Of a DNA stretch of 64,000 bases, positions 37,228 to 63,052 are shown piece after piece; the stretch's first letter is position 1; every line of letters starts with the position of its first letter. Below the pieces are notes generated by a model that worked only from the letters and a program-made list of their open reading frames with translations, ran no database searches and was not told the DNA's origin. The translations under genes and the position numbers were made by a program. The stretch is from Actinomycetota bacterium (lineage in GTDB: Bacteria > Actinomycetota > Coriobacteriia > Anaerosomatales > UBA912): NCBI GenBank assembly GCA_023488435.1, contig JAMDCK010000022.1:23551-87550 (forward strand). Reading direction: 5' to 3'.

Positions 37228-38349
37228 TCAGATCCCGATCATTGCCCGAAGGCGCAACAACACCAGCGCCAACATCTCTCGAACCGAAGGAGAGATCATG
37301 ACGACAGCAGTGATGACTGCGATTCCAGCACCCGCCAACAACAGAAGGTCGCTCGTTCCGACCGTCGACCGATATAGCTTGTTCACGCCCTTGGCGTCGA
37401 CCAGACGATGACCGACCTTCACCCTCACGATGAATGTGGAAGCCATCCCTTTACGCCCTTTGTCCAGGTAATCGACAAGGTTGGCGTGGGTTCCGACCGC
37501 CACGATCAACTCAGAGCCCGATTCGAATGCCAGCAGTAGCGCGAGATCCTCGCTGGTTGCCGAGAGCGGCCACGGCTGAGCGGTCAGGCCCAACCCTTGG
37601 ATGCGCTCCATCCCGGGAGCCCTGCCGTCCTCGTAGGCATGAACGATCAGCTTGGCTCCGGATCGCAAAGCCTCATCTGTCACCGAGTCCATATCGCCGA
37701 CGATAACATCAGGCTTAAAACCGGCCTCTAGGATCGCATCGGCACCGCCATCGACACCGATCAGTACGGGCCTGATCTCCCGAATGTAAGACTTCAGGGC
37801 ATTGAGGTCCTTCTTGTAGTCGTAACCCCTGACTACGACCAATGCATGTTTGCCGTGAAAGTCGATGCCGGTTTCCGGAACAGCAATCGCTCCGGTCAAC
37901 AGCTCCTTCTCGTTCTCAAGGTAGTCCAAGGTGTTCCTGACGAAACTATCGAGTTGCGCTCCCATCTCACTGTCGGCTTCAAGCATTGAGGACTCGATGG
38001 ATTCAACTGTCAGCCACTGTCCAGAAGCTATGAGTTCGCCTTCAAGGAACACATCGTGCCCGATGATGTTTATGGCCGCTCCATCTTGGATGCGCTCGAA
38101 GACGGCGGGCCCGACGTCATCAAGGATGTGAACCCCACCTCTGGCCAAAAGGATCGGGCCGGTGTTCGGATATGCGCCCGAAATGGAGCGAGAGGCATTG
38201 ATGACGCACTCAACGCCGACTCCGAGAAGACCTTCTGCGCTGACCTTGTCGATGTCCTGGTGGTCGATGATGGCGATATCATCGCTGCTCAAGCGCTTGA
38301 CGAGGTCCTTGGTGCGACTATCGATCCTAGCGGTTCCCGACAAGCGCAT
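37228..38349 (-). CDS. steA: SteA family protein (Rv1697-like, cell-division associated), intact copy
   Basis: Start refined to the ATG at 38349 (MRLSGTARIDSRTKDLVKRLSSDDIAIIDHQDID...). Has a C-terminal TM helix. The track ORF 37228-38562 is an upstream extension. Confidence 0.8.
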   Translation of the reverse strand: MRLSGTARIDSRTKDLVKRLSSDDIAIIDHQDIDKVSAEGLLGVGVECVINASRSISGAYPNTGPILLARGGVHILDDVGPAVFERIQDGAAINIIGHDVFLEGELIASGQWLTVESIESSMLEADSEMGAQLDSFVRNTLDYLENEKELLTGAIAVPETGIDFHGKHALVVVRGYDYKKDLNALKSYIREIRPVLIGVDGGADAILEAGFKPDVIVGDMDSVTDEALRSGAKLIVHAYEDGRAPGMERIQGLGLTAQPWPLSATSEDLALLLAFESGSELIVAVGTHANLVDYLDKGRKGMASTFIVRVKVGHRLVDAKGVNKLYRSTVGTSDLLLLAGAGIAVITAVVMISPSVREMLALVLLRLRAMIGI

Positions 38350-39482
38350 CCTTGCGACCCTCCGTCCTGGATCGCTTTGCACTAGCGAGCAGCTCGCTCG
38401 CGTGTGCGAGTCCGGTCTCGCTGGAACCCCCCGAAAGCATCCTCGCCACTTCGGCGATTCGGGCTTCATCGGCGACGTGATCGACCTGCGTGCGCACTCC
38501 GTCAGAGTCGACAGACTTGGTGACAACCAGATGCCGGTCAGCGAATGCCGCCACCTGGGCAAGGTGCGTGACGACCAAAACCTGATGCTTTTCGGCCAAC
38601 AGGCTCAAGCGTCGGCCGATTGCGGTGGCCGTGGCGCCTCCGATTCCGGCATCAACCTCGTCAAAGACGAGGTCGATGCCGGTTTCCGGAACAGCAATCG
38701 CTCCGGTCAACAGCTCCTTCTCGTTCTCAAGGTAGTCCAAGGTGTTCCTGACGAAACTATCGAGTTGCGCTCCCATCTCACTGTCGGCTTCAAGCATTGA
38801 GGACTCGATGGATTCAACTGTCAGCCACTGTCCAGAAGCTATGAGTTCGCCTTCAAGGAACACATCGTGCCCGATGATGTTTATGGCCGCTCCATCTTGG
38901 ATGCGCTCGAAGACGGCGGGCCCGACGTCATCAAGGATGTGAACCCCACCTCTGGCCAAAAGGATCGGGCCGGTGTTCGGATATGCGCCCGAAATGGAGC
39001 GAGAGGCATTGATGACGCACTCAACGCCGACTCCGAGAAGACCTTCTGCGCTGACCTTGTCGATGTCCTGGTGGTCGATGATGGCGATATCATCGCTGCT
39101 CAAGCGCTTGACGAGGTCCTTGGTGCGACTATCGATCCTAGCGGTTCCCGACAAGCGCATCCTTGCGACCCTCCGTCCTGGATCGCTTTGCACTAGCGAG
39201 CAGCTCGCTCGCGTGTGCGAGTCCGGTCTCGCTGGAACCCCCCGAAAGCATCCTCGCCACTTCGGCGATTCGGGCTTCATCGGCGACGTGATCGACCTGC
39301 GTGCGCACTCCGTCAGAGTCGACAGACTTGGTGACAACCAGATGCCGGTCAGCGAATGCCGCCACCTGGGCAAGGTGCGTGACGACCAAAACCTGATGCT
39401 TTTCGGCCAACAGGCTCAAGCGTCGGCCGATTGCGGTGGCCGTGGCGCCTCCGATTCCGGCATCAACCTCGTCAAAGACGAG
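37861..39482. repeat. Perfect head-to-tail tandem duplication, 2 x 811 bp (37861-38671 and 38672-39482)
   Basis: The two units read identically base for base. Identical track ORFs are offset by exactly 811 (37931-38131/38742-38942, 38056-38385/38867-39196, 38070-38282/38881-39093). The flanks diverge at once (37860 a vs 38671 g; 38672 g vs 39483 a). Confidence 0.95.
38327..39160 (-). CDS. Chimeric ORF created by the 811-bp duplication: SteA residues 1-163 fused in frame to RecN residues 441-554
   Basis: 277 codons. The junction at 38672/38671 reads ...AIAVPETGID|LVFDEVDAGIGG... and falls exactly on codon boundaries of both parents. It carries the native steA translation start region (copy at 39160). 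Expression is unknown. Confidence 0.6.
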   Translation of the reverse strand: MRLSGTARIDSRTKDLVKRLSSDDIAIIDHQDIDKVSAEGLLGVGVECVINASRSISGAYPNTGPILLARGGVHILDDVGPAVFERIQDGAAINIIGHDVFLEGELIASGQWLTVESIESSMLEADSEMGAQLDSFVRNTLDYLENEKELLTGAIAVPETGIDLVFDEVDAGIGGATATAIGRRLSLLAEKHQVLVVTHLAQVAAFADRHLVVTKSVDSDGVRTQVDHVADEARIAEVARMLSGGSSETGLAHASELLASAKRSRTEGRKDALVGNR

Positions 39483-44680: not shown

Positions 44681-45110
44681 CCTCGGGCCTCCAACCTTCC
44701 TTCATCCGCGCCGCCGAATCAGCCAACCTGCCGAGAACCCCGTTGACGAACTTCGAGGAGTCCTCTCCCCCGTAGAGCTTAGCGAGCTCGACGGCCTCGT
44801 TGATCGATACCGACACCGGGACGTCATCCGCGTACACGATCTCGTAAGCGGCGATGCGCAGGATATTACGGTCGACAAGCGGCATGCGGGCGACCGTCCA
44901 GTGCTCGGAGATGCGGCCCAGAAGGTCGTCGATCCCGCTCTGGTGTTGCTCCACGCCCTGTGACAGCTCAAGACCGAACGGAAGCAGCTCTCCCTCTTCG
45001 CGGCTGTAAGAGCCATCGCGCATGATATGCTCCACGCTCTCACCAGTGATTTCTCGCTGGTAGAGGATGTGAAGGGCCTGCTTCCTGGCCTTGGATCGCT
45101 CTATCATCAT
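44670..45110 (-). CDS. nusB: Transcription antitermination factor NusB
   Basis: Start refined to the ATG at 45110 (MMIERSKARKQALHILYQ...). DRNILRIAAYEI motif. Confidence 0.9.
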   Translation of the reverse strand: MMIERSKARKQALHILYQREITGESVEHIMRDGSYSREEGELLPFGLELSQGVEQHQSGIDDLLGRISEHWTVARMPLVDRNILRIAAYEIVYADDVPVSVSINEAVELAKLYGGEDSSKFVNGVLGRLADSAARMKEGWRPEDVR

Positions 45111-45135
45111 TCGGCAAACACCCGCCCGATAAACC

Positions 45136-45489
45136 TCATGCAGGAAAATCGATGCCGTCGATATAGACGTCGACAGCATCGGTCTTCAGGCCGACTTGGC
45201 TAGCCAGCGCATCGGCGATCGCTTCCTGCGTCCGTTGGGCGACTTCCCTGAGCGGGTGGCCGTACAGGGCTCGCACGTGGATAGCAACGTTGACTTCCGA
45301 GGAATCGCCCAGGCTGACCTCGACGCATCGACCGGGACCCATGCTACTCGACTTGCGGACCATTCCTGCAAGCCCCGGATAGCAAACCTGGGCCACGCCA
45401 TCGACACTCTCGGCGGCCAAGGTCACAATCGTTTCAAGGACGCCGGGCGCTATGGCCAGTCCTTCGATCTTTATCTCTTCAGACATCAT
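45136..45489 (-). CDS. Asp23/Gls24 family envelope stress protein
   Basis: 117 aa. IAPGVLETIVTLAAESVDGV... is typical of Asp23. Lies between accC and nusB, as does Bacillus yqhY. Confidence 0.85.
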   Translation of the reverse strand: MMSEEIKIEGLAIAPGVLETIVTLAAESVDGVAQVCYPGLAGMVRKSSSMGPGRCVEVSLGDSSEVNVAIHVRALYGHPLREVAQRTQEAIADALASQVGLKTDAVDVYIDGIDFPA

Positions 45490-45512
45490 ATAACCCCGCA
45501 GACTTCTCGGTT

Positions 45513-46862
45513 TCAGCTCGACGACATGTGACGGTCGACGAAATCAGTATAGACCTCACCGGCCTGGAATGCAGGATTCTCGACGACTCGTTGATGAAAT
45601 GCAACTGTCGTGGGTATCCCGACCACGATGAACTCATCGAGGGCGCGCTTCGCTCGCGCTAGGGCCTCATCGCGATTCTCGCCCCACACGATCAGTTTTG
45701 CAAGCAAGGAGTCGTAGTTGGGCGGCACTCGATAACCTGAGTATAGGTGGCTATCGATCCGCACGCCGAACCCTCCAGGCGGATTGAAGACCTTCACCTC
45801 TCCGGGACCCGGGCGGAAGTCGTGCTCGGGATCCTCGGCGTTTATGCGGAACTCGATTGCGTGGCCCCGAATCTGGATGTCGCTCTGCTCGGTGTGGCGC
45901 ATCGGTAGGCCGGCAGCGATCCTGAGCTGCTCTTTGATGATGTCGACTCCGGTGATCTGCTCGGTGACCGGGTGCTCGACCTGGACCCGGGTGTTCATCT
46001 CCATGAAGTAGAAGCTGCCATCGATATCGAGCAGGAACTCGACGGTTCCGGCGTTGCGGTAGTCAACAGCACGCACGAGACTCAGGGCCGCTTCGCCCAT
46101 GCGTTCGCGCAGCTCAGGGGTGAGCGCAGGCGACGGTGCCTCCTCGATGAGCTTCTGATGGCGCCGCTGCACCGAGCAATCACGCTCGTAGAGGTGAACC
46201 GCGTTGCCATGGGAATCCGCCAACACCTGGAACTCTATATGCCGAGGACGCGACAGGTACTTCTCGATGTACACGCCATCGTTGCCGAAGGCGGCGCCTG
46301 CCTCGTTGCGAGCCGCGACGAATGCCGTTTCGAGCTCCTCGGCGCTGGTCACGACCCTCATGCCCTTGCCGCCACCACCAGCAGAAGCCTTGATGATCAC
46401 CGGGAAGCCCACACGCTGGGCGAATGCCAGGGCGTCCTCAGCGCGCTCGACCTCACCATCGCTTCCGGGGACGCAAGGCACGCCTGCAGCCATCGCGGTC
46501 GAGCGCGCGACCGCCTTGTCGCCCATCTTCTCGATGGCTTCGGCGGACGGGCCTACGAACACCAGGCCGGACTCTTCGACAGCGCGCGCAAAAGCCGCGT
46601 TCTCGGCGAGAAAACCGTATCCGGGATGGATCGCCTTGGCGCCACTCATCAGCGCCGCCGAGATGACGTTCGCCATGTTGAGATAGCTCTTCGTCGAGAT
46701 GGCCGGCCCGATACACACCGATTGATCGGCCATACGGGCGTGCAGGCTGTCGCGGTCGGCCTCGCTGTAGACGGCGACCGTTTCTATCCCCATCTCCTTG
46801 CAGGCCCGAATCACCCTCAGGGCGACTTCGCCCCTATTCGCCACGAGGACTCTGTCGAACAT
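45513..46862 (-). CDS. accC: Biotin carboxylase (AccC / pyruvate carboxylase subunit A type)
   Basis: MFDRVLVANRGEVALRVIRACKEMGI N-terminus, ATP-grasp domain, 449 aa. Confidence 0.93.
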   Translation of the reverse strand: MFDRVLVANRGEVALRVIRACKEMGIETVAVYSEADRDSLHARMADQSVCIGPAISTKSYLNMANVISAALMSGAKAIHPGYGFLAENAAFARAVEESGLVFVGPSAEAIEKMGDKAVARSTAMAAGVPCVPGSDGEVERAEDALAFAQRVGFPVIIKASAGGGGKGMRVVTSAEELETAFVAARNEAGAAFGNDGVYIEKYLSRPRHIEFQVLADSHGNAVHLYERDCSVQRRHQKLIEEAPSPALTPELRERMGEAALSLVRAVDYRNAGTVEFLLDIDGSFYFMEMNTRVQVEHPVTEQITGVDIIKEQLRIAAGLPMRHTEQSDIQIRGHAIEFRINAEDPEHDFRPGPGEVKVFNPPGGFGVRIDSHLYSGYRVPPNYDSLLAKLIVWGENRDEALARAKRALDEFIVVGIPTTVAFHQRVVENPAFQAGEVYTDFVDRHMSSS

Positions 46863-48754
46863 CAGCTGCTCGGTGCCGGGTCGTAGTAGAAGAGCACGGT
46901 ACCGTACTCGACCGGCGTTGCGTCATCGACGCACACTTCCTTGATGACTCCGGATTCCTCGGCAGTGATCTCGTTCATGAGCTTCATGGCTTCCAGGATG
47001 CAAAGCGGCTGATTGACGCTGACGGCATCGCCGACGCTCACGAACTCAGGTGCGCCGGGTGACGGCGAGCGGTAGAAGGTGCCGACCATCGGGGCCGTGA
47101 CCTGCTTCCATGCCGAAGGGCGCTGGTCGCCGTTGGGCGAGGTGGCCGCAGCCAACACAGGTGCTGCCGAAGGAGCCGCCGCAGCCGCCGGTGCGGCTAC
47201 GACCGGGGCCGCCTCTTGTGCAGAAACCCCACCCTTGCGGATTGCGATCTTCGCGCCGCCCTCCTCGATGACAATCTCGCTGACATCCGATGCCTCGATG
47301 ATCTTCACGAGTTCCTTGATCTGGTTCACGTCCATGGACTGATCTCCCTCTTTGGCTGACTTGATCTCTTCGCCCATCATGAATACGGCGTTCTTCAGGC
47401 CGTCCTTGTTTGCGGTCAGGTAAGCGCGTGCCTCGTTCGGGAAGAGGGCGTACATGAGCACGTCCTCCTCGGATTTGGCCAGATCACCAATCTCGGCTTC
47501 GACGTCGGCGTATGTGGTTGTCGCCATCGAGCCCGGACGTACGTCCGGATCGAGCGGAGCTGTTCCGCAAAGAACCTTCGCCACGACATCTGGGTCCATC
47601 GGACCTGGCGCCCTGCCGTACAGACCGCGAATGTAATCCTTCATCTCCTGGGGCACGATGTTCCAGCGCTTGCCAGTGAGCACGTTGATGACAGCCTGTG
47701 TGCCGACGATCTGCGAGAGTGGCGTGACGAGCGGCGGATAGCCGACCTCTGCGCGGACTCTTGGGATCTCCGCAAGGACATCAGTCAGCCTATCGCTGGC
47801 GTTCTGCAGCTCCAGCTGACTAAGCAGGTTCGAGAGCATGCCTCCTGGCACCTGGTGGCTGAAGACCTCCATGTGCATGAGTGATGTCACACCGCGCTTG
47901 AAGTTATTGCGGATGCGGACATCCTCCCAGTACTCGGCGATCTCGAAGAGCAGCTCCAGGTCGATGCCTGTGTCGTACTTCGATTCCTTCAGAGCCGCGA
48001 CGATCATCTCCACCGCAGGCTGACTGTTCCCAAAGGCAAGCGCCACGACCGCTGTATCCACGATCTGCGCCCCGGCCTCAATGGCTTTGAGGTAGTTCAT
48101 GGGAGCCATTCCGCCGATGTAGTGGCAGTGCACCCGGATCGGAAGCCCGATCTCCTTCTTGAGTGCCGCGACCATCTTTTCGGTCCGAAACGGGGTGAGC
48201 ATTCCGGCCATATCCTTGATACCGATCAAATCAGCGCCGGCGTCTTTGAGCTCTTGAGCGTGCTCGATGTAGGAGTCCAAGGTGTGGACCGGGCTCACAG
48301 TGTAGCTGAGTGCGCCCTCGAACAGTCCCCCACACTCCTTGATCGCCTCGGCGGTCACCTGGACGTTTCGGATGTCGTTCAGGGCATCGAAGTTGCGGAA
48401 AACATCGATTCCGTTGCGCTTAGCGGCGAAGACGAACCTTCGGCAAAGGTCATCGGAGTAGTGCCTGTAGCCGACCAAGTTCTGGCCGCGGAGCAACATC
48501 TGCAGCGGAGTGTTCGGGCAATGCCGCTTGATGGCCCTCAGGCGATCCCAGGGGTTCTCGTCAAGGAAGCGCAGGGCCGCGTCGAATGTCGCGCCGCCCC
48601 AAACCTCGAGCGACCAATAACCGACCGAGTCCATCTTCTCGAGGATTGGCAGCATGTCGCCCAGACGCATCCGAGTCGCCCACAGGGACTGATGTGCGTC
48701 GCGCAAAGTGGTATCTGTGATGAAGACGCGTGCCATGCCGTGCTCCTTGCCCAA
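46862..48754 (-). CDS. Carboxyltransferase (oxaloacetate decarboxylase alpha / pyruvate carboxylase subunit B type) fused to a C-terminal biotinyl carrier domain
   Basis: N-terminus ITDTTLRDAHQSL (HMGL-like TIM barrel), Ala/Pro linker, C-terminal biotinylation motif CILEAMKLMNEI. Its stop overlaps the accC start by 1 nt. Confidence 0.9.
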   Translation of the reverse strand: MGKEHGMARVFITDTTLRDAHQSLWATRMRLGDMLPILEKMDSVGYWSLEVWGGATFDAALRFLDENPWDRLRAIKRHCPNTPLQMLLRGQNLVGYRHYSDDLCRRFVFAAKRNGIDVFRNFDALNDIRNVQVTAEAIKECGGLFEGALSYTVSPVHTLDSYIEHAQELKDAGADLIGIKDMAGMLTPFRTEKMVAALKKEIGLPIRVHCHYIGGMAPMNYLKAIEAGAQIVDTAVVALAFGNSQPAVEMIVAALKESKYDTGIDLELLFEIAEYWEDVRIRNNFKRGVTSLMHMEVFSHQVPGGMLSNLLSQLELQNASDRLTDVLAEIPRVRAEVGYPPLVTPLSQIVGTQAVINVLTGKRWNIVPQEMKDYIRGLYGRAPGPMDPDVVAKVLCGTAPLDPDVRPGSMATTTYADVEAEIGDLAKSEEDVLMYALFPNEARAYLTANKDGLKNAVFMMGEEIKSAKEGDQSMDVNQIKELVKIIEASDVSEIVIEEGGAKIAIRKGGVSAQEAAPVVAAPAAAAAPSAAPVLAAATSPNGDQRPSAWKQVTAPMVGTFYRSPSPGAPEFVSVGDAVSVNQPLCILEAMKLMNEITAEESGVIKEVCVDDATPVEYGTVLFYYDPAPSS

Positions 48755-48777: not shown

Positions 48778-49338
48778 CTAGACGCGGGTGACGTAGCGCC
48801 CATCGCGTGTATCAATACGTAGCTTATCGCCGGTCTCGACAAAAAGCGGAACCTGCACCACGGCACCGGTCTCAAGTGTGGCCGGCTTGGTTCCGCCCTG
48901 GACCGTGTCGCCCTTGAATCCGGGATCGGTCTCCGTGACTTCGAGTTCAACGAACATCGGAGGCTCCACGCCCATATACTCGCCGTCTGCGGTGAGCATC
49001 TCAACCTCGTCGGTCTCGCGGAGCCACTTAGCCGCCGAGCCTACGAAATCGGAATCAAGCTCCACCTGCTCGTAGCTCTGCGCGTCCATGAAGTGGAACG
49101 TCACGCCATCTGAGTACAGGAACTGCATCTTCTTGTTCTCAACTCGGACGTCATCGAACTTCTCGCCAGCCCGAAACGTGTAATCAACGATCCGGCCGGA
49201 CTTGAGCTCCTTTAGCTTGGTGCGCACAAACGCACCTCCCTTACCGGGCTTGACGTGCTGGAACTCCACAATCACCCATCGCTTGCCTTCATGGACGATG
49301 CACATACCGTTCTTGAAATTGCTCGTAGATACCGCCAT
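48778..49338 (-). CDS. efp: Elongation factor P
   Basis: 186 aa. VKPGKGGAFVRTKLK carries the modified-Lys loop. Confidence 0.97.
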   Translation of the reverse strand: MAVSTSNFKNGMCIVHEGKRWVIVEFQHVKPGKGGAFVRTKLKELKSGRIVDYTFRAGEKFDDVRVENKKMQFLYSDGVTFHFMDAQSYEQVELDSDFVGSAAKWLRETDEVEMLTADGEYMGVEPPMFVELEVTETDPGFKGDTVQGGTKPATLETGAVVQVPLFVETGDKLRIDTRDGRYVTRV

Positions 49339-49362
49339 ATAGTCAGTACTTTCCTTCCAGGA

Positions 49363-50615
49363 TCAAAGCTCGAGGAGCTCACGCGGAGAACCGCTCAACA
49401 GGGTGTAACCCTCGGACTCCACAACAGCGAGGTCCTCTATTCTAACACCGCCAAGCCCCGGGATGTAGATACCAGGCTCCACAGTCACCACACTTCCCGT
49501 GAGCACAGCCGCCCTGCCGCGAGGGCTCACTGTAGGCAACTCATGAACCTCCAGCCCAACACCATGCCCTAGCCCGTGGCCGAAGCGTCCGGCAAACCCC
49601 GCCGATTCGATGACTTCGCGAGCCTTCGCGTCGATATCCTGGCCGCGCAGTCCACCTCGAAGCGCCTGCAAGCCGGCAGCGTGCGCCTCCAGTACGACCG
49701 CGTGAAGCTCCCTCTGCTGTTCCGACGCCTTGCCGATGACGACTGTCCGGGTCATGTCGGCGCAATAGCCATCGACTTTCGCTCCAAGGTCGATCGTCAC
49801 GAGATCCCCAAGCTCAAGCACCTTTTCCGAGGCGATCGCATGCGGCCTCGAGGAGTTCAGCCCGCTCGCCACGATGGGCGGGAATGCGAGGCCGTCGGCG
49901 CCCTCAGAGCGCATGAACGCCTCAATCTCCCAGGCGATCTCCCGCTCGGTAACTCCAACGCCCAAACGAGTGAGAATATGCTCGAAAGCGCGATCCGTGA
50001 GCTTGGCCGCTTGCTGGATTCGATCTAGCTCCTCAGGCTCCTTGACCTGACGCTGCTCCTCGATCCACTGGTCGATCATCTCAACATTGCCGTCGAAGCA
50101 CTCAGAGATGAAACGAAATCGTCCGTACGGCATCGAGGATTCGAGCGCGAGCGAACCGACTCCTGAACCTGCAAGTACGTCACACAATTCGACGTAAAGG
50201 GACTGGTCGACTGCGCGGACTGACCAGTCCGTGCCCACAGCGGCCTCAACGGCCGCCTCGGTGTACCGAGAGTCTGTGAATGCCTGGGCAATTGACTCTG
50301 TCACCAGACACGCAACGTTCGCGTGACTGAACCTGCAAGTACGTCACACAATTCGACGTAAAGGGACTGGTCGACTGCGCGGACTGACCAGTCCGTGCCC
50401 ACAGCGGCCTCAACGGCCGCCTCGGTGTACCGAGAGTCTGTGAATGCCTGGGCAATTGACTCTGTCACCAGACACGCAACGTTCGCGTGATCGTCGAAAA
50501 CACCCTCAAAGCCGGTGATGTATCGGATGTTGACCACATCAGTGACCACGATCGCTGGAATCCCAGAATCCGCAAGCCGCTTTCGGAGCAGTCCCAGCCT
50601 GCGGCCAGGGTTCAT
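49363..50615 (-). pseudogene. Xaa-Pro aminopeptidase/dipeptidase (M24B, PepP/PepQ type) disrupted by an internal 164-bp tandem duplication
   Basis: The 5' ORF runs from the ATG at 50615 ([26 protein letters not shown]...) and ends out of frame at 50301. The 3' ORF 49363-50304 carries the whole M24 catalytic domain (DLGAKVDGYCADMTR, HGLGHGVGLEVHE, TVEPGIY). Deleting one repeat unit restores a single 362-codon gene. Confidence 0.85.
50163..50490. repeat. Perfect head-to-tail tandem duplication, 2 x 164 bp (50163-50326 and 50327-50490)
   Basis: The units were compared base by base and are identical. The flanks differ at once (50162 c vs 50326 a; 50327 c vs 50491 t). 164 is not a multiple of 3. 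Confidence 0.97.
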
Positions 50616-51055
50616 CGGGCCACTCCAGCAGCCGCGATCGCAGCGTGGACGCCAAGGACATACGAATATGCCCCGAAGCCGCATATCTGTCCCGAGCACA
50701 CGGGAGCGATGACACTGCTTTTCCTGAAATCCTCTCTTGCGGAGATATTGCTCAGGTGGACCTCGACCACTGGCACCTTACAGCCAGCCACAGCATCCCT
50801 GATAGCGTAAGAATAGTGGGTGAAAGCTCCTGGATTGAACACGACGGCATCGTATCTGCCGACAGAATCCTGTAAGGCATCGATCAACGATCCCTCGTGA
50901 TTGGACTGGAAGAAGCCGACGTCCACGCCTAAGGCGCTGGCTTCCTGAGCCACTGTGGCTTCCACATCATCAAGGGTTACATTGCCGTAGACTTCAGGCT
51001 CACGGGTTCCCAGCGTGTTGAGATTCGGTCCGTTCAGTACTAGAACTCGCAACAT
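50612..51055 (-). CDS. aroQ: Type II 3-dehydroquinate dehydratase
   Basis: LNGPNLN..LG.REP..YG N-terminus, 147 aa. Confidence 0.93.
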
Positions 51056-51079
51056 GACGCTCCCCCTGTTCGGTGAGGC

Positions 51080-52189
51080 TCACATGGACTTGTGGCGTTC
51101 GATATCGGCAGCCAGAAACGCATTCAGCTCGTCGGCAATAGTTCTCTCGTCTACCGGGACGACTACCCACGATCCGGGTTCGGTCGCAAAGACGAAGCGT
51201 ATCTCACCAGCGCGCACCTTCTTGTCGGACCGCATGGCATAGCGTACCGCATCGACGTCCAAATCGGCCAGAGCTGGACTCAGACCAAGTGCGTCGAGCA
51301 GGGCGACTTGCCTAGTGCCGAAGTGTTCGGAGGCCATGTCGAGCCGAACAGAGAGCCCTGCTGCGAACCTGAGTCCGGCTGCGACGGCAAGACCATGCGG
51401 AATGACGCCGTAACCAGCAACCTTCTCGATCGCGTGTGCCAAAGTGTGTCCAAGATTGAGGGATTCCCTGGGGCCAGCCTCGCGTTCGTCGGCTTGCACG
51501 ACCGAAGCCTTGGAGCGCACACAGTCGGCCACAACTTCCGTAAGAACCGCAGTCTCACCTGCAAGCAGACTCTTCGAGTCGCGCTCCAGCCGGGCCAGAA
51601 GCGATTCACCATCCAGGAATGCGGTCTTGACCACCTCCGCAAGTCCGCTCTTGAGCTCACTTTCCGGCAGCGTTGCGAGGAGCGCCGTGTCCGCGATGAC
51701 CGCCCGTGGCTGGACGAACACTCCGGCTAGGTTCTTCCCGGCAGCCAGATCCACCCCCGTCTTCCCGCCCACCGAAGAATCCACCTGGGACAGGAGTGTT
51801 GTGGGAATCTGGTAGTAGTCGATGCCTCGCATATAGACCCCGGCCGTGAAGCCTGCGATGTCGCCCACTACTCCGCCGCCGAAAGCGATGATCGCTTCAT
51901 CTCGCTCGACGCGTTCATGGGCCAGCTGCTCCAGTAGCCGACCGGCTAACTGCCAGTTCTTGGATTGCTCGCCGGGAGGTACCTGCATGACTGTGAACGA
52001 TATTCCTGCGCCTGCAAGCGACTTTTCGAGTACGGACCCGTGAATTTCGTATGCGGTCCGGTCGGCGATTATCGCGACTCTTGGTCGACGAAGAAGGTCA
52101 GCAAGGACGGGTCCCGTGGCGCCGAGCGCACCAGGGCCAACAAGAACCTCGTAGCTACCCCCTGAGCACTGGACTGGTACCACAATCAT
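51080..52189 (-). CDS. aroB: 3-dehydroquinate synthase
   Basis: GGGVVGD nucleotide motif, metal ligands in LNLGHTLAHAIE, 369 aa. Confidence 0.93.
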   Translation of the reverse strand: MIVVPVQCSGGSYEVLVGPGALGATGPVLADLLRRPRVAIIADRTAYEIHGSVLEKSLAGAGISFTVMQVPPGEQSKNWQLAGRLLEQLAHERVERDEAIIAFGGGVVGDIAGFTAGVYMRGIDYYQIPTTLLSQVDSSVGGKTGVDLAAGKNLAGVFVQPRAVIADTALLATLPESELKSGLAEVVKTAFLDGESLLARLERDSKSLLAGETAVLTEVVADCVRSKASVVQADEREAGPRESLNLGHTLAHAIEKVAGYGVIPHGLAVAAGLRFAAGLSVRLDMASEHFGTRQVALLDALGLSPALADLDVDAVRYAMRSDKKVRAGEIRFVFATEPGSWVVVPVDERTIADELNAFLAADIERHKSM

Positions 52190-52707
52190 GGCGTTGTCCT
52201 GTCCGAGAGCACCTTCAATGCGGTCTGGGCCACGTCAGAGATAGAAAGCCCACGAGTGTCGATGGTTGCGTCGGCAAGTGCGTCGTAGAGGCACTCGCGC
52301 GCAGCCAGTAGCGATGTGGCTGCCATGGAGCCCGCAGGGCCCGCAAGCAAGGGTCTGGTCGAAGTGTCGCCGATCCGGGCCAGCGCCTCCGCGGCATCGA
52401 CCTTGAGGTACAAGACCATGCCCATACGCTTCAGTGCCGCCCTGTTGGCAGCAGTGAGGACGACTCCCCCTCCGCACGCGACCACCGAAGGCGTCGAGTC
52501 TTGCAAAGCAATGAGTGCGTCGGTCTCCAACTGCCTGAACGCCACTTCACCCTGGGACTCAAAGATCTCAGGAATGGTGCGTCCGGCATTGGTGACAATG
52601 GACTCATCCAGATCGATGAAGGGAACGTCGAGATCCGCTGCCAGCAGTCGCCCAACGCTCGACTTGCCCGCCCCCATAAAGCCGATCAGGAACAGATGCC
52701 CTACCAT
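52186..52707 (-). CDS. aroK: Shikimate kinase
   Basis: Start refined to the ATG at 52707 (MVGHLFLIGFMGAGKSSVGR, Walker A). The track ORF's upstream 47 aa lie inside aroC. Confidence 0.9.
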   Translation of the reverse strand: MVGHLFLIGFMGAGKSSVGRLLAADLDVPFIDLDESIVTNAGRTIPEIFESQGEVAFRQLETDALIALQDSTPSVVACGGGVVLTAANRAALKRMGMVLYLKVDAAEALARIGDTSTRPLLAGPAGSMAATSLLAARECLYDALADATIDTRGLSISDVAQTALKVLSDRTTP

Positions 52708-53858
52708 GACTCGAGCCTCTGCAGGTAAGCGTGCTGTGCAACCTGGATGTCCATCAAGTTGTTTCCGCCGAAGGCTTCGATGTGCGCAGCAGCCAACACA
52801 AGGCACACCTCGGCTTCCGCAACCACAGCTGCTGCAGGGACCGCACACACGTCGGATCGCTCCTTGGAGGCGTCCACGATTGCGTGAGAGTCTATGTCGA
52901 CGGACGCTAGTGGCGTCATCAGTGTCGGAATCGGTTTCATCGCTGCGCGAACGACCAGCGGCTGTCCGTTGGTCATGCCACCTTCGAGACCGCCAGCGTG
53001 ATTGGTCAGCCGATGATAGCCCCGAGTAGCATTGTGATAGATCTCGTCGTGTACTTGGGATCCGACCTGCCCCGCCGAAGCGAACCCAGTGCCGAACTCG
53101 ACGCCCTTGATCGCCGGTATGGATATCACCGCTGCAGCCAATCGTGCGTCGAGACGCTGATCGGCCTGTGCGTACCCACCGAGTCCGGGCACAAGGCCCG
53201 TCGCAGTCACATAGAAGGTCCCGCCGAGGCTCTCCCCTGCGGCTTGAGCCTGATCGATAGCCACACGCATCCTGCCTGATGCCTCAGCATCCGGACAGCG
53301 CAGGTCACTACCCTCAACCACCTTGTGGTCAATAAGCTCGGGATTGAGAGGGGCTTGGATCGACACTTCGCCGACAGAAGCAACAAAGGAGTGAACCTCG
53401 ACTCCAAGTTGGCGGAGGAAGGCGCGTGCCACCGCGCCGGCTGCCACCCTAGCGGCAGTCTCTCTGGCACTTGCACGCTCAAGGATGTCGCGCACATCAC
53501 GGGTCCCGGTCTTCATGATGCCAGCTAGGTCTGCATGGCCGGGACGAGGAGCCTTCACTCGGGCTTCTTCGCGAAGATGGCCAGGTGCGGCCTGCATCAC
53601 ATCGGTCCAGTTGTCCCAGTCGCGATTGGCCACAGTCAGGGCGATAGGCGACCCAATAGTACTGCCAAGCCGCACCCCCGCCGAGATAAGCGCCCTGTCA
53701 CGCTCGATACGCATACGCCCGCCACGGCCGTAGCCGACTTGGCGGCGTGCTAGATCATGGTCGATCATTGCCTGATCGATGGGAATGCCAGCAGGGACGT
53801 CACTAATGATGGCAGTCAAGGCTCGTCCGTGGGACTCGCCGGCGGTGACATAGCGCAT
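52701..53858 (-). CDS. aroC: Chorismate synthase, intact
   Basis: [12 protein letters not shown]-terminus, GRSSARETA-like motif (ERASARETAARVAAG), 385 aa. Confidence 0.97.
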   Translation of the reverse strand: MRYVTAGESHGRALTAIISDVPAGIPIDQAMIDHDLARRQVGYGRGGRMRIERDRALISAGVRLGSTIGSPIALTVANRDWDNWTDVMQAAPGHLREEARVKAPRPGHADLAGIMKTGTRDVRDILERASARETAARVAAGAVARAFLRQLGVEVHSFVASVGEVSIQAPLNPELIDHKVVEGSDLRCPDAEASGRMRVAIDQAQAAGESLGGTFYVTATGLVPGLGGYAQADQRLDARLAAAVISIPAIKGVEFGTGFASAGQVGSQVHDEIYHNATRGYHRLTNHAGGLEGGMTNGQPLVVRAAMKPIPTLMTPLASVDIDSHAIVDASKERSDVCAVPAAAVVAEAEVCLVLAAAHIEAFGGNNLMDIQVAQHAYLQRLESW

Positions 53859-55065
53859 GGGGATTCTTCCTCCGAGCTTGGTTGGCTACTTGCCCACTGG
53901 AGTGATGACCCCTGGCTCATTCGGGTCAACTACCGCACCAACCCCGACTGCAAGTCTGATGGAGGCGTCACCATAGGCGAATGTAGCAGATCGATCGGCG
54001 ATACTCCGAACCATCCAGGGAGTACCAGCGATGGACTCTCCTGCGGCCAAGGTGTGGGTTACGCCGTTCAAGTCAACGACCACGTTTGGAACCCCATCCT
54101 CGACAACGATGTTGACGAGAGTCAGTCGATCGACCCCCGCAGTCCCCGTAGCTACGGCACCCGGGGTGACAGCTGCTGACGGTCGAATAACGGGCTTGAA
54201 GATATCCCTGAATGTGAATAGCTCCGACGAAGGTATCGCTGCAGGCTCAACGATCTCTTCGGGCACAGGCGTCGGTGACGTCTCGGCTGGCTGTTCCACA
54301 ATGACTTCGATCTCATCGAGGGCCTGCGCCTGCATCACATCGGTCCAGTTGTCCCAGTCGCGATTGGCCACAGTCAGGGCGATAGGCGACCCAATAGTAC
54401 TGCCAAGCCGCACCCCCGCCGAGATAAGCGCCCTGTCACGCTCGATACGCATACGCCCGCCACGGCCGTAGCCGACTTGGCGGCGTGCTAGATCATGGTC
54501 GATCATTGCCTGATCGATGGGAATGCCAGCAGGGACGTCACTAATGATGGCAGTCAAGGCTCGTCCGTGGGACTCGCCGGCGGTGACATAGCGCATGGGG
54601 ATTCTTCCTCCGAGCTTGGTTGGCTACTTGCCCACTGGAGTGATGACCCCTGGCTCATTCGGGTCAACTACCGCACCAACCCCGACTGCAAGTCTGATGG
54701 AGGCGTCACCATAGGCGAATGTAGCAGATCGATCGGCGATACTCCGAACCATCCAGGGAGTACCAGCGATGGACTCTCCTGCGGCCAAGGTGTGGGTTAC
54801 GCCGTTCAAGTCAACGACCACGTTTGGAACCCCATCCTCGACAACGATGTTGACGAGAGTCAGTCGATCGACCCCCGCAGTCCCCGTAGCTACGGCACCC
54901 GGGGTGACAGCTGCTGACGGTCGAATAACGGGCTTGAAGATATCCCTGAATGTGAATAGCTCCGACGAAGGTATCGCTGCAGGCTCAACGATCTCTTCGG
55001 GCACAGGCGTCGGTGACGTCTCGGCTGGCTGTTCCACAATGACTTCGATCTCATCGAGGGCCTGC
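53590..55065. repeat. Perfect head-to-tail tandem duplication, 2 x 738 bp (53590-54327 and 54328-55065)
   Basis: Identical track ORFs are offset by exactly 738 (53757-54179/54495-54917). The junction and flanks were read directly (53589 g vs 54327 c; 54328 g vs 55066 t). Confidence 0.95.
53886..54596 (-). CDS. Chimeric ORF created by the 738-bp duplication: AroC residues 1-90 fused in frame to residues 63-208 of the pilus-cluster protein
   Basis: 236 codons. The junction reads ...NWTDVMQA|[12 protein letters not shown].... It keeps the aroC ribosome-binding region but lacks the TM helix of the pilus-cluster parent. Expression is unknown. Confidence 0.6.
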
Positions 55066-55250
55066 TGGGCACGAGTCTCAAGAAAGTCCAGAACGAAGAA
55101 TGTGGCAGCTCCGGCCACAACAAAGAACAGAAGGACTGCTCCGATTATCAGGATCAGACTCTTGCGCGCGAAGCCTTTAGTAGCCGAAGCGTCCTGAGTC
55201 GCGCCGCTTGCTGAGTCCACCTTCATCTTATCTGTCATCATGTCGCCCAC
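54624..55250 (-). CDS. Bitopic pilus-cluster protein (PilP-like position), intact
   Basis: 208 aa with one TM (SLILIIGAVLLFFVVAGAATFFVL), a Pro/Glu linker and a beta-rich C-terminal domain. Directly follows pilM-pilN-pilO. The call is positional only. Confidence 0.55.
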   Translation of the reverse strand: MGDMMTDKMKVDSASGATQDASATKGFARKSLILIIGAVLLFFVVAGAATFFVLDFLETRAQQALDEIEVIVEQPAETSPTPVPEEIVEPAAIPSSELFTFRDIFKPVIRPSAAVTPGAVATGTAGVDRLTLVNIVVEDGVPNVVVDLNGVTHTLAAGESIAGTPWMVRSIADRSATFAYGDASIRLAVGVGAVVDPNEPGVITPVGK

Positions 55251-55270
55251 GTAAAGTCATCCTTCATCTC

Positions 55271-55894
55271 TCACTGGGCCGGTACCTCCGCAGGAGGAGC
55301 TTCAGCGGCTGGCGGGGTTGGTGCTAGGGAGTAGATCTCTAACTGCATGGTTACGTCAACTTCTTGCTCGGGAGCCGGGGCGCCCGGGGTAGGAGTAGCC
55401 TCAGTAGCCGGCTCAGCGTACGGTGTTACATCAAAGCTGACGATACGAACTTGCCTGACCACCCGTCTTAGGCGCTGGGTGAGGTCAATGATATCGGCCC
55501 ATTCGCCCCTGATCGTCACCGAGATACCGATGGTGCTAAATCCAAGGCCCCCATCAACGGGCAGGGTTGGTGAAAGCATGGAGAACTCCAAGCCAGATTC
55601 ATTGATGACATCTTGCAGTTCAATAATGAATGCAGGTAGTTCAGGGCTGGCAGGCAGCTGGTTTGAGAGACGTAGAAGCTGTGTCTCTGTCTGTGCAGAC
55701 TGTGCCTTGATTTCCTGTCGCTGCTCAAGCAGGAGTCGTGCAGCATCTGCCTCACCCTGCGCAGCTTGAACTTGGGATTCGATTTCTGCCAACCGAGTGA
55801 ACTGAGGTACGACGAGAAGTGCCACAATCAACACGGCGACAAGGACCATACCAACAACGATGGCTAGGAGCTTCTGTTTGGGCGTGAGTTTCAT
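55271..55894 (-). CDS. pilO: Type IV pilus assembly protein PilO
   Basis: N-terminal TM, coiled coil (EIESQVQAAQGEADAARLLLEQRQ), C-terminal ferredoxin-like region. Follows pilN. Confidence 0.75.
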   Translation of the reverse strand: MKLTPKQKLLAIVVGMVLVAVLIVALLVVPQFTRLAEIESQVQAAQGEADAARLLLEQRQEIKAQSAQTETQLLRLSNQLPASPELPAFIIELQDVINESGLEFSMLSPTLPVDGGLGFSTIGISVTIRGEWADIIDLTQRLRRVVRQVRIVSFDVTPYAEPATEATPTPGAPAPEQEVDVTMQLEIYSLAPTPPAAEAPPAEVPAQ

Positions 55895-55911
55895 CTCAGT
55901 GAAGCCTCATC

Positions 55912-56556
55912 TCACGGAGTCGCTGTGGTCGAGGGGTCAGGGGCATCGGTCGATATCGCTTCCATCTGATCAGGACTCATGACCTCACAGGTGACCTGGA
56001 ATCTAAGTACCGGCTGGCCAGGAGCATCTGCGACCCCGGGCAACTCTGTCTTCTGGGAGCTCGTCAGCCAGACGCTGCTGAGCATCTCGATGTTCGCCAA
56101 ACGAGCAAGCGTCCTTGCGACCGCCTTGTGGCCCATGTCGGGTACGTCAGTTGCAGAGTCAACTGCAATCGCACTTAGGGTCAAGCCTGTGTCCTGTGCA
56201 GCCTGGAGGCTGTCCAGCCATACATCCGTAGGCAAAACCAATGAAAGCTCGTTGAGAAGCCTGCCCCAGTCGATACGTTGCTTGACCGCCTCCTGCATGA
56301 CAATTTGACGTTGAGCCAGATCGGCCTCTTTGTCTTCGAATATCTGCAATGCGCTAGCCTGTGCGCTAAGAGTAGCCGCCAGGTCTTTGTGTGACTGGAG
56401 TTCGGCGGTGCGCTGAGATAGCATCCACTGCGTGAACCCGAAGACTGCGAACAGCACCAAGTAAACAACAAGTGCGGCTAGCGCTGCGATCTTGATCGCA
56501 GTCTCGAAATTTCTCTTTTCGCTGATCTCACGAGGGAGTAGGTTGATGCGAACCAT
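55912..56556 (-). CDS. pilN: Type IV pilus assembly protein PilN
   Basis: MVRINLLPREI N-terminus (PilM-binding INLLP motif), one TM, then coiled coil. Confidence 0.85.
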   Translation of the reverse strand: MVRINLLPREISEKRNFETAIKIAALAALVVYLVLFAVFGFTQWMLSQRTAELQSHKDLAATLSAQASALQIFEDKEADLAQRQIVMQEAVKQRIDWGRLLNELSLVLPTDVWLDSLQAAQDTGLTLSAIAVDSATDVPDMGHKAVARTLARLANIEMLSSVWLTSSQKTELPGVADAPGQPVLRFQVTCEVMSPDQMEAISTDAPDPSTTATP

Positions 56557-57672
56557 CTACCCTGCACCCCCCATTGACAGGCCGACTGCTGGCGCAATTC
56601 CCATTCTGTCGCTCATGACCACGGGCTCCAGCGCTGCGGGAACCTGGAGAAACTGCATAGGGTCAACGACACGCACTTCTGCCTGGAGACCCTTCGAAAG
56701 ATAATCAGTCAGATGGGTGAGTTGTGACCCACTTCCGGTGACATATATCTTAGAAATCGACCTGACCTGTGTTGCCTGCGTCAGGTAGTAGTCCAACGAC
56801 CGACGAACCTCCGCGATGAACTTGTTGACTTCACGCTCCAGGGTGTCCTGAGCAACTTGTACCGCATGATCCTCCGTCACTGGTGCCCCGCCCTCGATGT
56901 CAGGGAGGCCAGCTCTCAGCTTGAGCTCCTCAGCCTCGTCGAACGTCAGATTGAGCACGTTCGAAATCGCTTGAGTGAACTGATTTCCTGCGATTGCAGA
57001 GACGCGCGTGAAGCGAGGAACGCCCTTTTCCACCACTGCTATGTTGGTCACGCCCGAAGAGATATGGATCACGCCGATCGCCTCGCCTGGCGCCTCTTCG
57101 TGCGCGGGTAAAACGCTGTCTACTGCGCCGAAGAGCGCTCTTACTAGGGCGAACGATGTTACGTCGATTCTTACAAGCCGAAGGCCGGCGGCCTCGACTG
57201 CTGAAACAGCGTTGTCGATCATGTCGCGGGCGGCGGCCACCAACAAGACCTCCATCATATGCTCATCGGTCGGGGTCATATAGTCGCCGATGATCTGGAA
57301 ATCGAGGATAGCATCCTCTACGGGGATCGGGATGTAATCCTGAGCCTGATACTGGATCGCGCCTTGAAGCTCCGCGCGCTCCATGTAGGGAAGGTCGATC
57401 AAACGTACTACAACCTTCTGATTGGATACCCCGATAGCGACGTCCTTGCCCTTGAACCCCCCGAGTCGCCAAGCATCCTTGACGGCATGGGTGACAGCCA
57501 TCTGATCGAAAATCTCCCCTTCGACAACAGCACCCAAGGGCATGCCGACCTTGCTGTAAGCAGATAGTATGAAGCCAGAGCCTGACGGCTTGACCTGTGC
57601 GATGCGTACCTGATCGGTCCCAATATCGAGACCAACCGGTATCGTCTGAGCTCCTAAGGATACGAGACCCAA
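56557..57672 (-). CDS. pilM: Type IV pilus assembly ATPase-fold protein PilM
   Basis: Actin-like fold (VGLDIGTDQVRIAQV...). TTG start with AAGGGGG upstream. Its stop abuts the pilN start. Confidence 0.9.
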   Translation of the reverse strand: MGLVSLGAQTIPVGLDIGTDQVRIAQVKPSGSGFILSAYSKVGMPLGAVVEGEIFDQMAVTHAVKDAWRLGGFKGKDVAIGVSNQKVVVRLIDLPYMERAELQGAIQYQAQDYIPIPVEDAILDFQIIGDYMTPTDEHMMEVLLVAAARDMIDNAVSAVEAAGLRLVRIDVTSFALVRALFGAVDSVLPAHEEAPGEAIGVIHISSGVTNIAVVEKGVPRFTRVSAIAGNQFTQAISNVLNLTFDEAEELKLRAGLPDIEGGAPVTEDHAVQVAQDTLEREVNKFIAEVRRSLDYYLTQATQVRSISKIYVTGSGSQLTHLTDYLSKGLQAEVRVVDPMQFLQVPAALEPVVMSDRMGIAPAVGLSMGGAG

Positions 57673-57693
57673 CGGAGGCCCCCTTCTGCCATC

Positions 57694-57714
57694 ACTGCTA
57701 CGAAACTGCTACGA
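57694..57714 (-). promoter_or_regulatory. 10-bp direct repeat (ACTGCTACGA x2, period 11) in the pilM leader
   Basis: Plus-strand copies at 57694-57703 and 57705-57714, lying between a candidate promoter and the pilM start at 57672. Confidence 0.35.
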
Positions 57715-57745
57715 CTGTTGCTGCATCAAAACAATCCTGTGAAAG

Positions 57746-57775
57746 ATTGTACCCATAGCTTGTGAATATACGCAA
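57746..57775 (-). promoter_or_regulatory. Candidate pilM promoter TTGCGT-18-TACAAT
   Basis: Minus strand has TTGCGT at 57775-57770 and GGGTACAAT with its -10 at 57751-57746. Confidence 0.35.
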
Positions 57776-57784
57776 TACCCGAGT

Positions 57785-59287
57785 TCACTGGCGGGACCAA
57801 CCACTCATGCTGACGGCATTCATGCCGTGACCCGGCATTGCTGGGGAAAGCACTTCCCCAAGATTTGGGCTGGTTCTGAGGTCCATATTGTTGTTGCCTA
57901 CAATATTCATTCCCCCGGTTATCAAAGAGCCCACGACTAGCACTTTCTTGTCGATGCTGATCGTTCCGTTGGAGAAGAAAGCCCCTGCATGAGTGGGCGG
58001 ACCGTACGGGTTCTGCTGATTGCTGTCCGTGGACGGAGACAGGTGTATGCTAGAAGGAGTAGCCAGTCCTATGACCGCTTCACTTCTGAACAACTGATGC
58101 GGTAGGCCGTCACGCACACCATCCTCAGGGCGGCCATCCATTAAGCCCCCAAGAGGAACGAAGTTTGTATTTTCGAACCTGATTTCGCCGTTCGCAACTA
58201 TTGTGCCCTGACCTTGGTAGCTCACGAGGCTGCCTACGGCGATTGTCAAGGGGCCGTCGACGAACACAGTTCCCCGCACGGTCAGCACACGATTGGTGCC
58301 ATCCCACGCAAAGTCGTCGGTAAGGCGCCCAAACGAGGGAGTCGAAGCATCTATCCGCAAGCCAGTATCCCCGTCCACATCGTTATCGCTATCGACAACT
58401 TTGTAGCGCTCAGGACTCGCCCCAGGGGCGTGTATGCCCGGATAACGGCCACTTTGGTCCCTTTCGTCGTTGGCGATCCCCCCCGCATGCCCTTGAACAT
58501 TATCCCTCGACTGTGCAGCAGCATCAGAATATGCCCTCTGGAGATAGGCCTCATCAACCCTGGGCACAATCATCCTTGGCACTGGCCGGATGACTGTTGT
58601 GCCAGCTACATCCGGAACAGTAGCCCCTTGGTCGGCATACAATATTCGAACTTGATCTCTTTGAGAATTTCCTCCGCTAGCATTGAGGGCCTTTTCCGGA
58701 TTGTTCATGATGAAGTGCCCGTTCGTTACAAAGAGCGGACCCCAGCCAAATTCTACACTTTGTCCGATCTCAGCATTCCCCCTAAGGCTGCCATGACTGT
58801 AGAATGGCCCGAACACGGTAGAGTTTCCGCCCATCTTCCCACCGGCACTCGTGACCCCTGTGCTATGTGCGATATTCATCCCATATAGATCCATGACCCA
58901 CAGACGCATGCTGATCGTCTCCTGACTCCCATCGGCTCCACGACCGACCGAAGTCAAGACATATTCGAAAGGATTGGTAGGCCTAACAGTCACAGTTGCG
59001 CTGCCCGAAACCAGTTCCTCCGCACTAAAGATCATGGGAGCAGTTGCGACGGCGGATGCCCCATGACGAAATCGCGCGACGGCAGCGTCCAGAGCGCCGT
59101 TGGCGGCCTGGAACGCCTGGGTCTCCTGCCGATTGACGCTCGCCTCGTGGATCGCCTGTCGCGACATAGCGAATCCCCCGAAAGTGACAACGGTCAGAAC
59201 CGCAATGATCCCCATCACTACCACGACTGCGTAGCCTGAGTCGGATGCGGTGCTTGTGGGTATCCCACACTTGAGTCGACGCTTCAT
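57785..59287 (-). CDS. PilX-like large pilus-associated protein (N-terminal hydrophobic helix, no Glu5)
   Basis: Start refined to the ATG at 59287 (MKRRLKCGIPTSTASDSGYAVVVVMGIIAVLTVV), with GGAGGA upstream. 500 aa, Gly/Asn/Thr-rich and probably beta-rich. Confidence 0.6.
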   Translation of the reverse strand: MKRRLKCGIPTSTASDSGYAVVVVMGIIAVLTVVTFGGFAMSRQAIHEASVNRQETQAFQAANGALDAAVARFRHGASAVATAPMIFSAEELVSGSATVTVRPTNPFEYVLTSVGRGADGSQETISMRLWVMDLYGMNIAHSTGVTSAGGKMGGNSTVFGPFYSHGSLRGNAEIGQSVEFGWGPLFVTNGHFIMNNPEKALNASGGNSQRDQVRILYADQGATVPDVAGTTVIRPVPRMIVPRVDEAYLQRAYSDAAAQSRDNVQGHAGGIANDERDQSGRYPGIHAPGASPERYKVVDSDNDVDGDTGLRIDASTPSFGRLTDDFAWDGTNRVLTVRGTVFVDGPLTIAVGSLVSYQGQGTIVANGEIRFENTNFVPLGGLMDGRPEDGVRDGLPHQLFRSEAVIGLATPSSIHLSPSTDSNQQNPYGPPTHAGAFFSNGTISIDKKVLVVGSLITGGMNIVGNNNMDLRTSPNLGEVLSPAMPGHGMNAVSMSGWSRQ

Positions 59288-59303
59288 CGCACGTCCTCCA
59301 TTG

Positions 59304-61573: not shown

Positions 61574-61631
61574 AAGTCCTTCACTCCCATCGATGAGAGT
61601 TTGGTAGGCAACATGAATTCAGCACACTTCT

Positions 61632-61645
61632 ATTATACCTATCGG
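61632..61645 (-). promoter_or_regulatory. Candidate promoter of minor-pilin operon: CCGATAGG-TATAAT
   Basis: Perfect TATAAT (minus 61637-61632), immediately preceded by CCGATAGG. About 60 nt upstream of the 61573 start. Confidence 0.4.
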
Positions 61646-61681
61646 TTCAAGAGTCCCCGAACTTGACACCCTCAGTCAGGC

Positions 61682-62512: not shown

Positions 62513-62584
62513 GTTCTACTCCTTGCAGGCTGGCGATCTCTCACTGAATCTGGAATGAGGCTGGTGCTTGAATTCTCGAAGCTC

Positions 62585-62626
62585 AAAAAACATTTCAGAG
62601 GCCGGTGCTGAAGGCACCGGCCTCTG
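62585..62626 (-). terminator. Rho-independent terminator downstream of pilA
   Basis: Perfect 13-bp stem (62596-62608 / 62614-62626) with a 5-nt loop. On the minus strand it is followed by AAATGTTTTTT. Confidence 0.75.
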
Positions 62627-62652
62627 TTGTCTCATCTGATGCTGTCAGAGCT

Positions 62653-63006: not shown

Positions 63007-63052
63007 CGATGTCTCCTTCCCTTAGGTCACGCAGTCGTCTGACTGCCTTTAC

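Follow-up and report, generated by a model that had tools for sequence, protein, structure and literature searches.

Tandem duplications are described in bacteria as a reversible way of switching genes off. For cap3A of the S. pneumoniae type 3 capsule, tandem duplications are reported to switch the capsule off and to revert (Waite et al. 2001, as cited in PMC11163986). For phcA of R. solanacearum, tandem duplications are reported to revert in planta (Poussier et al. 2003, as cited in 10.1101/2023.04.27.538605). In Burkholderia thailandensis, an IS-mediated and RecA-dependent duplication of 208.6 kb acts as a bet-hedging copy-number switch via homologous recombination (PMC9946442). Adjacent duplications are also known as errors of genome assembly. 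False adjacent duplications, arising at gaps or from incorrect gap filling, form a documented class (Ko et al. 2022, Genome Biol 23:205, PMC9516828), which was described in vertebrate assemblies and mostly consists of haplotype ("heterotype") duplicates with gaps between them.

The locus described here contains a perfect 164-bp tandem duplication that splits the gene of an M24B Xaa-Pro peptidase on a metagenome-assembled contig. Herein, the window denotes the whole stretch of DNA that was analyzed, with a length of 64 kb. The original prediction, made from the letters alone, interpreted the duplication as a possible reversible OFF state. Its structural and gene-level reading stands; its switching hypothesis is unsupported, and the overall pattern favors the assembly artifact that the prediction itself had named as an alternative. 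We assign a probability of about 0.75 to the reading that the 164-bp duplication is a false duplication, arising from the joining of sequence pieces in a metagenome-assembled contig.

Architecture of the split peptidase gene

The peptidase gene is located on the minus strand between aroQ and efp (Table 1). Positions 50163-50326 of the window equal positions 50327-50490 letter for letter in a direct string comparison, and Tandem Repeats Finder reports a single array spanning 50163-50490 with a period of 164, 2.0 copies, 100% matches, no indels, and a score of 656. Beyond either end of this array, the period-164 identity continues for 0 bases. It is impossible for a perfect adjacent repeat of 164 bp to originate by chance. 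As 164 mod 3 = 2, the duplication causes a frameshift in the minus-strand peptidase gene, and both resulting fragments were located. Hence, the exact identity of the two units and the splitting of the gene between aroQ and efp are as the original prediction had described them.

The 5' fragment corresponds to the predicted 105-codon ORF (104 amino acids plus stop at 50301-50615). It is composed of native residues 1-96 followed by eight out-of-frame residues, ending in ...AGS-VTRTLRVW*. The 3' fragment, for which a 313-codon ORF with the whole catalytic domain had been predicted, indeed contains the entire Peptidase_M24 domain (Pfam E 1.4e-70), including the presumed ligand residues D221, D232, H296, E325, and E339 (residue numbers refer to the restored protein). 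The two fragments overlap in a GTGA, in which the TGA of the 5' fragment meets the GTG (native Val50) of the 313-residue ORF (50296-50306, minus strand). No Shine-Dalgarno-like sequence is visible upstream of this GTG. If the duplication is real, the GTGA overlap could allow some termination-reinitiation of the 313-residue piece.

Deletion of one unit yields an ORF of 1089 nt and 362 amino acids, whose ATG overlaps the stop of aroQ (ATGA). This restored gene, likewise anticipated, was rebuilt, and of the 19 related loci first fetched, at least 14 carry it with 100% nucleotide identity.

The peptidase gene lies directly upstream of efp with a gap of 24 nt (48778-50615), and this order is kept in all related contigs. 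A gene for a proline-specific peptidase and one for a polyproline translation factor are thus adjoining. Rfam and tRNA scans of the window came back empty, so an RNA element is not involved.

Table 1. Positions of the duplications, the affected and neighboring genes, and the chimeric ORFs within the window
Feature	Position	Strand	Description
164-bp unit, copy 1	50163..50326		Minus-strand coding for native peptidase residues 42-97
164-bp unit, copy 2	50327..50490		Identical to copy 1; novel junction at 50326/50327
M24B peptidase, 5' fragment	50301..50615	-	104 aa + stop; MCL5887331.1; Creatinase_N, partial
M24B peptidase, 3' fragment	49363..50304	-	313 aa, native residues 50-362, GTG start; MCL5887330.1
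aroQ	50612..51055	-	Type II 3-dehydroquinase, 147 aa; PF01220; stop overlaps peptidase start
efp	48778..49338	-	Elongation factor P, 186 aa; PF08207, PF01132, PF09285; 24 nt 3' of peptidase stop
811-bp duplication (two copies)	37861..39482		37861-38671 = 38672-39482; recN 3' end and 5' part of steA-like gene
Chimeric ORF from 811-bp duplication	38327..39160	-	277 aa, SteA N terminus + RecN C terminus; MCL5887319.1, "SteA"
738-bp duplication (two copies)	53590..55065		53590-54327 = 54328-55065; aroC 5' part and 3' part of upstream 208-aa gene
Chimeric ORF from 738-bp duplication	53886..54596	-	236 aa, AroC N terminus + C terminus of the 208-aa protein; MCL5887336.1, "chorismate synthase"
Segment between junctions 2 and 3	50327..54327		Exactly 4,001 bp

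Identity of the restored peptidase

The restored protein of 362 residues consists of a Creatinase_N domain (PF01321, E 5.7e-15, residues 6-136) and a Peptidase_M24 domain (PF00557, E 2.1e-70, residues 144-345). From knowledge of the M24B family, we take the five residues named above to be its metal ligands (D, D, H, E, E). All five are found in motifs that are conserved in the alignment to PDB 3q6d ("proline dipeptidase"), which the restored protein matches with an E value of 2.3e-77 across residues 6-360. With the M24B Xaa-Pro peptidases of the PepQ/PepP-like kind (PDB 3q6d and 2zsg, the latter "aminopeptidase P, putative"), the protein hence shares both domains and the metal-ligand motifs. 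It differs from them in reaching no NCBIfam equivalog cut-off: all NCBIfam matches lie below the curated values, the best one being PepQ_Arch with 239 bits against a cut-off of 630, so that no assignment to PepQ, PepP, or YpdF results. The protein is therefore filed only as an M24B Xaa-Pro peptidase, with the choice between dipeptidase and aminopeptidase left unassigned.

Two further duplications in the window

A repeat search across the whole 64 kb yielded only three repeats of at least 40 bp, and each of them is a perfect two-copy tandem duplication. The units measure 811, 164, and 738 bp, and all three duplications are situated inside 17.2 kb; each shows 100% identity and 2.0 copies, with the copies abutting. 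The two larger ones were missed by Tandem Repeats Finder because of its maximum period of 500. A first sign of further duplications had come from the alignment of the relatives, in which a second stretch of the window mapped twice.

In the 811-bp duplication, recN and the steA-like gene each keep one intact copy, and a chimeric ORF is formed in addition. The 738-bp duplication is in frame (738 mod 3 = 0); here as well, intact gene copies remain and a chimeric ORF is formed. Gene disruption is thus confined to one of the three duplications, the one of 164 bp. Since the 811- and 738-bp duplications leave intact genes, they would be tolerated too if they were real, and we count this point against an assembly artifact.

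The chimeric products MCL5887319.1 and MCL5887336.1 are each a singleton among ~15 billion proteins. Exact look-up of the peptidase fragments MCL5887331.1 and MCL5887330.1 leads to NCBI entries named "MAG: ... Actinobacteria bacterium", each on one contig with a length of 112,873 bp. The chimeric products are found in GenBank on this same contig; hence, all three duplications are part of the deposited record.

Apart from these perfect repeats, the window contains an imperfect 9/18/27-bp tandem repeat at 5849-5930 (GCACCTCCC-like, 78-85% matches), which adjoins the dcw/ftsZ region and probably codes for a proline/alanine-rich stretch.

Comparison with near-identical assemblies

Relatives of the window were gathered by exact look-up of AroQ, EF-P, the restored peptidase, RecN, a Mur ligase, and a pilus-cluster protein. 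This resulted in 40 loci, which stem from Logan assemblies of at least 20 sequencing runs, from ENA ERZ22146367, and from NCBI GCA_021847205.1 and GCA_027358295.1. The restored 362-residue sequence itself was found on 17 contigs (NCBI, JGI, ENA, and Logan). Overall, identity between the relatives and the window is 99.9-100%. Once the second copies are taken out, window and relatives are collinear and gap-free across 55 kb; individual aligned stretches of 10-21 kb reach 99.96-100% identity, and four loci (L004, L009, L016, and L117) exhibit 0 mismatches.

At the 164-bp site, a single unit and an intact 362-residue gene are present in 29 of 29 related loci, which represent ~19 distinct contigs and samples. 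The 811-bp site likewise shows one unit (10 of 10 related contigs), as does the 738-bp site in all 11 loci crossing it (8 distinct contigs by exact match). None of the novel junctions occurs in any related contig that crosses the three sites. The orthologue was thereby also checked for its length, as the original prediction had proposed: every contig crossing the site encodes the intact gene of 362 residues.

This comparison bears on the reading of the locus as an old, fixed, and decaying peptidase pseudogene, which is refuted and to which we attribute a probability close to nil. The frameshift alone speaks in its favor. Against it, the two units are 100% identical, and intact 362-residue genes in many assemblies have the same nucleotide sequence as the restored gene (100% identity); both domains and all five metal-ligand positions are intact. 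An old pseudogene was expected to show up as relatives with two diverged units, and every relative carries one.

Over the 55,413 positions that are covered by relatives, the window contains 0 private point substitutions. The private changes of the record hence amount to three structural ones against 0 SNPs. As a rule, homology-independent tandem duplications of 0.2-0.8 kb are far rarer than point substitutions, and they are unstable. Three private duplications alongside 0 private SNPs in 55 kb are very hard to explain by natural processes; they fit overlaps that were left untrimmed where contigs were joined or gaps filled.

Structure of the novel junctions

The novel junction sequences at the three sites are GTTCGCGTGA/CTGAACCTGC, GAGGGCCTGC/GCCTGCATCA, and AAAGACGAG/GTCGATGCC, with the slash marking the point of joining. 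The respective junction k-mers are CACGCAACGTTCGCGTGA/CTGAACCTGCAAGTACGTC, CTCATCGAGGGCCTGC/GCCTGCATCACATCGGTCC, and CCTCGTCAAAGACGAG/GTCGATGCCGGTTTCC. At the single-copy boundaries, the end of the unit is followed by TCGTCGAAAAC at the 164-bp site, by TGGGCACGAG at the 738-bp site, and by AACCGGGACA at the 811-bp site.

Microhomology amounts to 0 bp at all three junctions, as would be expected from a blunt concatenation in software. In duplications by slippage or template switching, a few bases of junction homology are usual and zero is unusual. A GGCCTGC 7-mer is present at both ends of the 738-bp unit. Its register does not fit a duplication mediated by microhomology, for which a period of 732 would be expected; a chance match of this kind is expected in ~1/3 of such context pairs, and the 7-mer was dismissed.

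The segment between junctions 2 and 3 has a particular layout: the preceding sequence recurs in its first 164 bp, and its last 738 bp recur in the sequence that follows. In this respect, it resembles an untrimmed patch or contig, and its round length (Table 1) suggests a patch of fixed size (center +/- 2,000). The length could also be a coincidence. The other inter-junction segment measures 11,655 bp.

At the junctions of the deposited contig, there is neither a run of N nor any other visible scar, and these scar-free junctions count against an artifact. The ends of the Logan contigs (~43.2 kb and 46.0-46.15 kb) and two ends of GCA_027358295.1 contigs (51.41-51.45 kb) were compared with the duplication boundaries, and none of them falls at one. 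The 37-mer across the 164-bp junction is absent from GTDB representative genomes and JGI metagenome contigs, and the junction of the 738-bp site is absent from the JGI metagenome contigs scanned.

Strain variation along the window

A mismatch map of the window against the 40 loci reveals SNP clusters at 51146-51476, 44781-47243, and 52572-55766, none of which coincides with a junction. These clusters presumably are recombination patches in other strains. As to a strain chimera at the junctions, the SNPs near the joins are sparse in this map, too few for allele switching to show.

The first cluster lies within aroB. Herein, DRR851287, DRR851289, and SRR29383103 carry 43-50 SNPs in ~330 bp, flanked by sequence with 0 differences, and by its sequence pattern the patch looks like a short import by homologous recombination. 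Two contigs of GCA_027358295.1 end inside it, at 51408 and 51449. SRR33086900 is ~4-9% divergent in 44781-47243 only and is identical in 50327-53502, and ERZ22146367 is divergent from 52572 onward and near-identical below this position. Recombination among strains of the species appears to be frequent.

Near-clonal sequence (99.9-100% at the nucleotide level over tens of kb) recurs in many unrelated accession series, namely SRR10252151, SRR227461xx, SRR25451292, SRR29383103, SRR33086900, DRR85128x, ERZ22146367, JGI, and two NCBI MAGs. This recurrence suggests an actinobacterial strain that is very widespread or stems from a shared inoculum.

Downstream in the window, positions 55271-64000 are occupied by a type IV pilus-like cluster with PilM/PilN/PilO, T2SSE ATPases, T2SSF, a prepilin peptidase, and N_methyl pilins. 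Variation among the strains peaks in a small pilin gene at ~62.6-62.8 kb, where SNPs and a 3-nt indel occur at 62655-62769.

Origin of the duplications

For a false duplication, the following mechanism is proposed. The pieces to be joined, whether contigs, a patch from gap filling, or one from local reassembly, would have overlapped by 811, 164, and 738 bp. If they were concatenated end to end with the overlaps left untrimmed, each overlap would appear twice, in tandem and perfectly identical. The real organism would then possess an ordinary intact peptidase gene of 362 residues between aroQ and efp, like all its close relatives, and both peptidase fragments as well as both chimeric ORFs deposited in GenBank would be by-products of annotation. 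The joining step itself is what we infer here; the duplications, their privacy to the record, and the identity to other assemblies are observed.

As far as we know, no assembler working purely on a de Bruijn graph can create a junction that is absent from all reads. Hence, if the assembly did without joining or gap filling, the junctions must be present in some reads. This leads to a reading in which the junctions are supported by reads but represent a minority, either a rare subpopulation or chimeras from amplification or library preparation through local template switching, with loops in the assembly graph each being written once into the consensus by a loop-traversing assembler. It would account for three private perfect duplications next to otherwise exact identity to the relatives and, going by general assembler knowledge, would let a graph assembler emit the junctions without a separate joining step. 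Yet, the 0 bp of homology at three junctions is unlike the usual template-switch chimeras or slippage products, and low-coverage edges are normally removed by assemblers, which leaves this reading quite unlikely. If it were true, the peptidase gene would be intact in most cells.

Alternatively, the 164-bp duplication would be real, recent, and present in most cells, with the peptidase OFF or strongly impaired and revertible by recombination or slippage between the units. The identity of the copies (100%) and of the intact gene in relatives implies that any real event is very recent, and perfect tandem repeats of 164 bp recombine readily, so the duplication, if real, would be reversible. Precedents exist in cap3A and phcA, and the GTGA overlap described above is compatible with residual expression by reinitiation. 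However, this reading needs three independent perfect duplications in 17 kb within a lineage for which 55 kb of compared sequence show 0 private SNPs, and 0 of ~19 near-identical assemblies from many samples carry the 164-bp duplication. Microhomology is absent at all three junctions, and since a MAG is a population consensus, a high frequency of the event would be required. There is also no visible repeat-prone sequence or recurrent hotspot as would befit a dedicated switch. We consider a real duplication in most cells unlikely.

A related scenario takes all three duplications as real and as having arisen together or in quick succession, e.g., in a repair-associated burst of homology-independent template switching over 17 kb. 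The peptidase would then be reversibly OFF, and the efp-linked peptidase dispensable in situ. We regard this scenario as very unlikely.

Judged as phase variation, the locus has the expected gene-level layout, i.e., a perfect frameshifting tandem duplication inside the ORF whose precise loss restores the 362-residue frame. At the population level, such a switch is defined by recurrence and by both states existing side by side. Recurrence, in the sense of both states across assemblies, is not seen: 0 of ~19 related contigs contain the duplication or the junction, and the fragments are found in one record only. The predicted "reversible OFF state" therefore finds no support in its context, which is a MAG contig with two sibling duplications within 17 kb, all of them private, and 0 private SNPs in 55 kb.

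The untrimmed joining of overlapping pieces remains the preferred reading. Very probably, the GenBank MAG record thus contains three false duplications and four spurious entries (MCL5887330.1, MCL5887331.1, MCL5887319.1, and MCL5887336.1), which are at risk of being misread as pseudogenization, gene gain, or domain fusion. As a working rule for genome scans, switching should be proposed for a perfect tandem duplication in a MAG only after near-identical assemblies have been consulted and sibling duplications looked for.

Comparison with known systems

Of the switches introduced above, cap3A, in the description cited, is similar to this locus in that a perfect tandem duplication within the ORF corresponds to the OFF state and the precise loss of one copy to the ON state. 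The cap3A duplications are described there as recurring at high frequency, with population heterogeneity and a selectable phenotype. In contrast, the peptidase duplication is confined to one record, is missing from ~19 related assemblies, and has two unrelated duplications close by in the same contig. The phcA system, as cited, shares the inactivation of a gene by an internal tandem duplication; its reversion was shown experimentally in cultured variants, whereas the case presented here comes from sequence comparison. The B. thailandensis duplication arises between IS copies that are already in place and alters the dosage of genes (PMC9946442). The peptidase locus differs from it by having no flanking repeats or IS elements, by a unit of 164 bp, and by an effect that is exerted through a frameshift. 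If the duplication were real, the locus would add one more case to a known mechanism of reversible mutation, in a housekeeping peptidase of an uncultured actinobacterium.

Compared with the false duplications of Ko et al., the copies in the window are perfectly identical, abutting, and gapless, and they are found in a prokaryotic MAG. Both sets nevertheless have the same basic features: adjacent blocks that are present in one assembly only, that are missing from independent or better assemblies, and that give rise to false gene models, here in the form of four spurious proteins.
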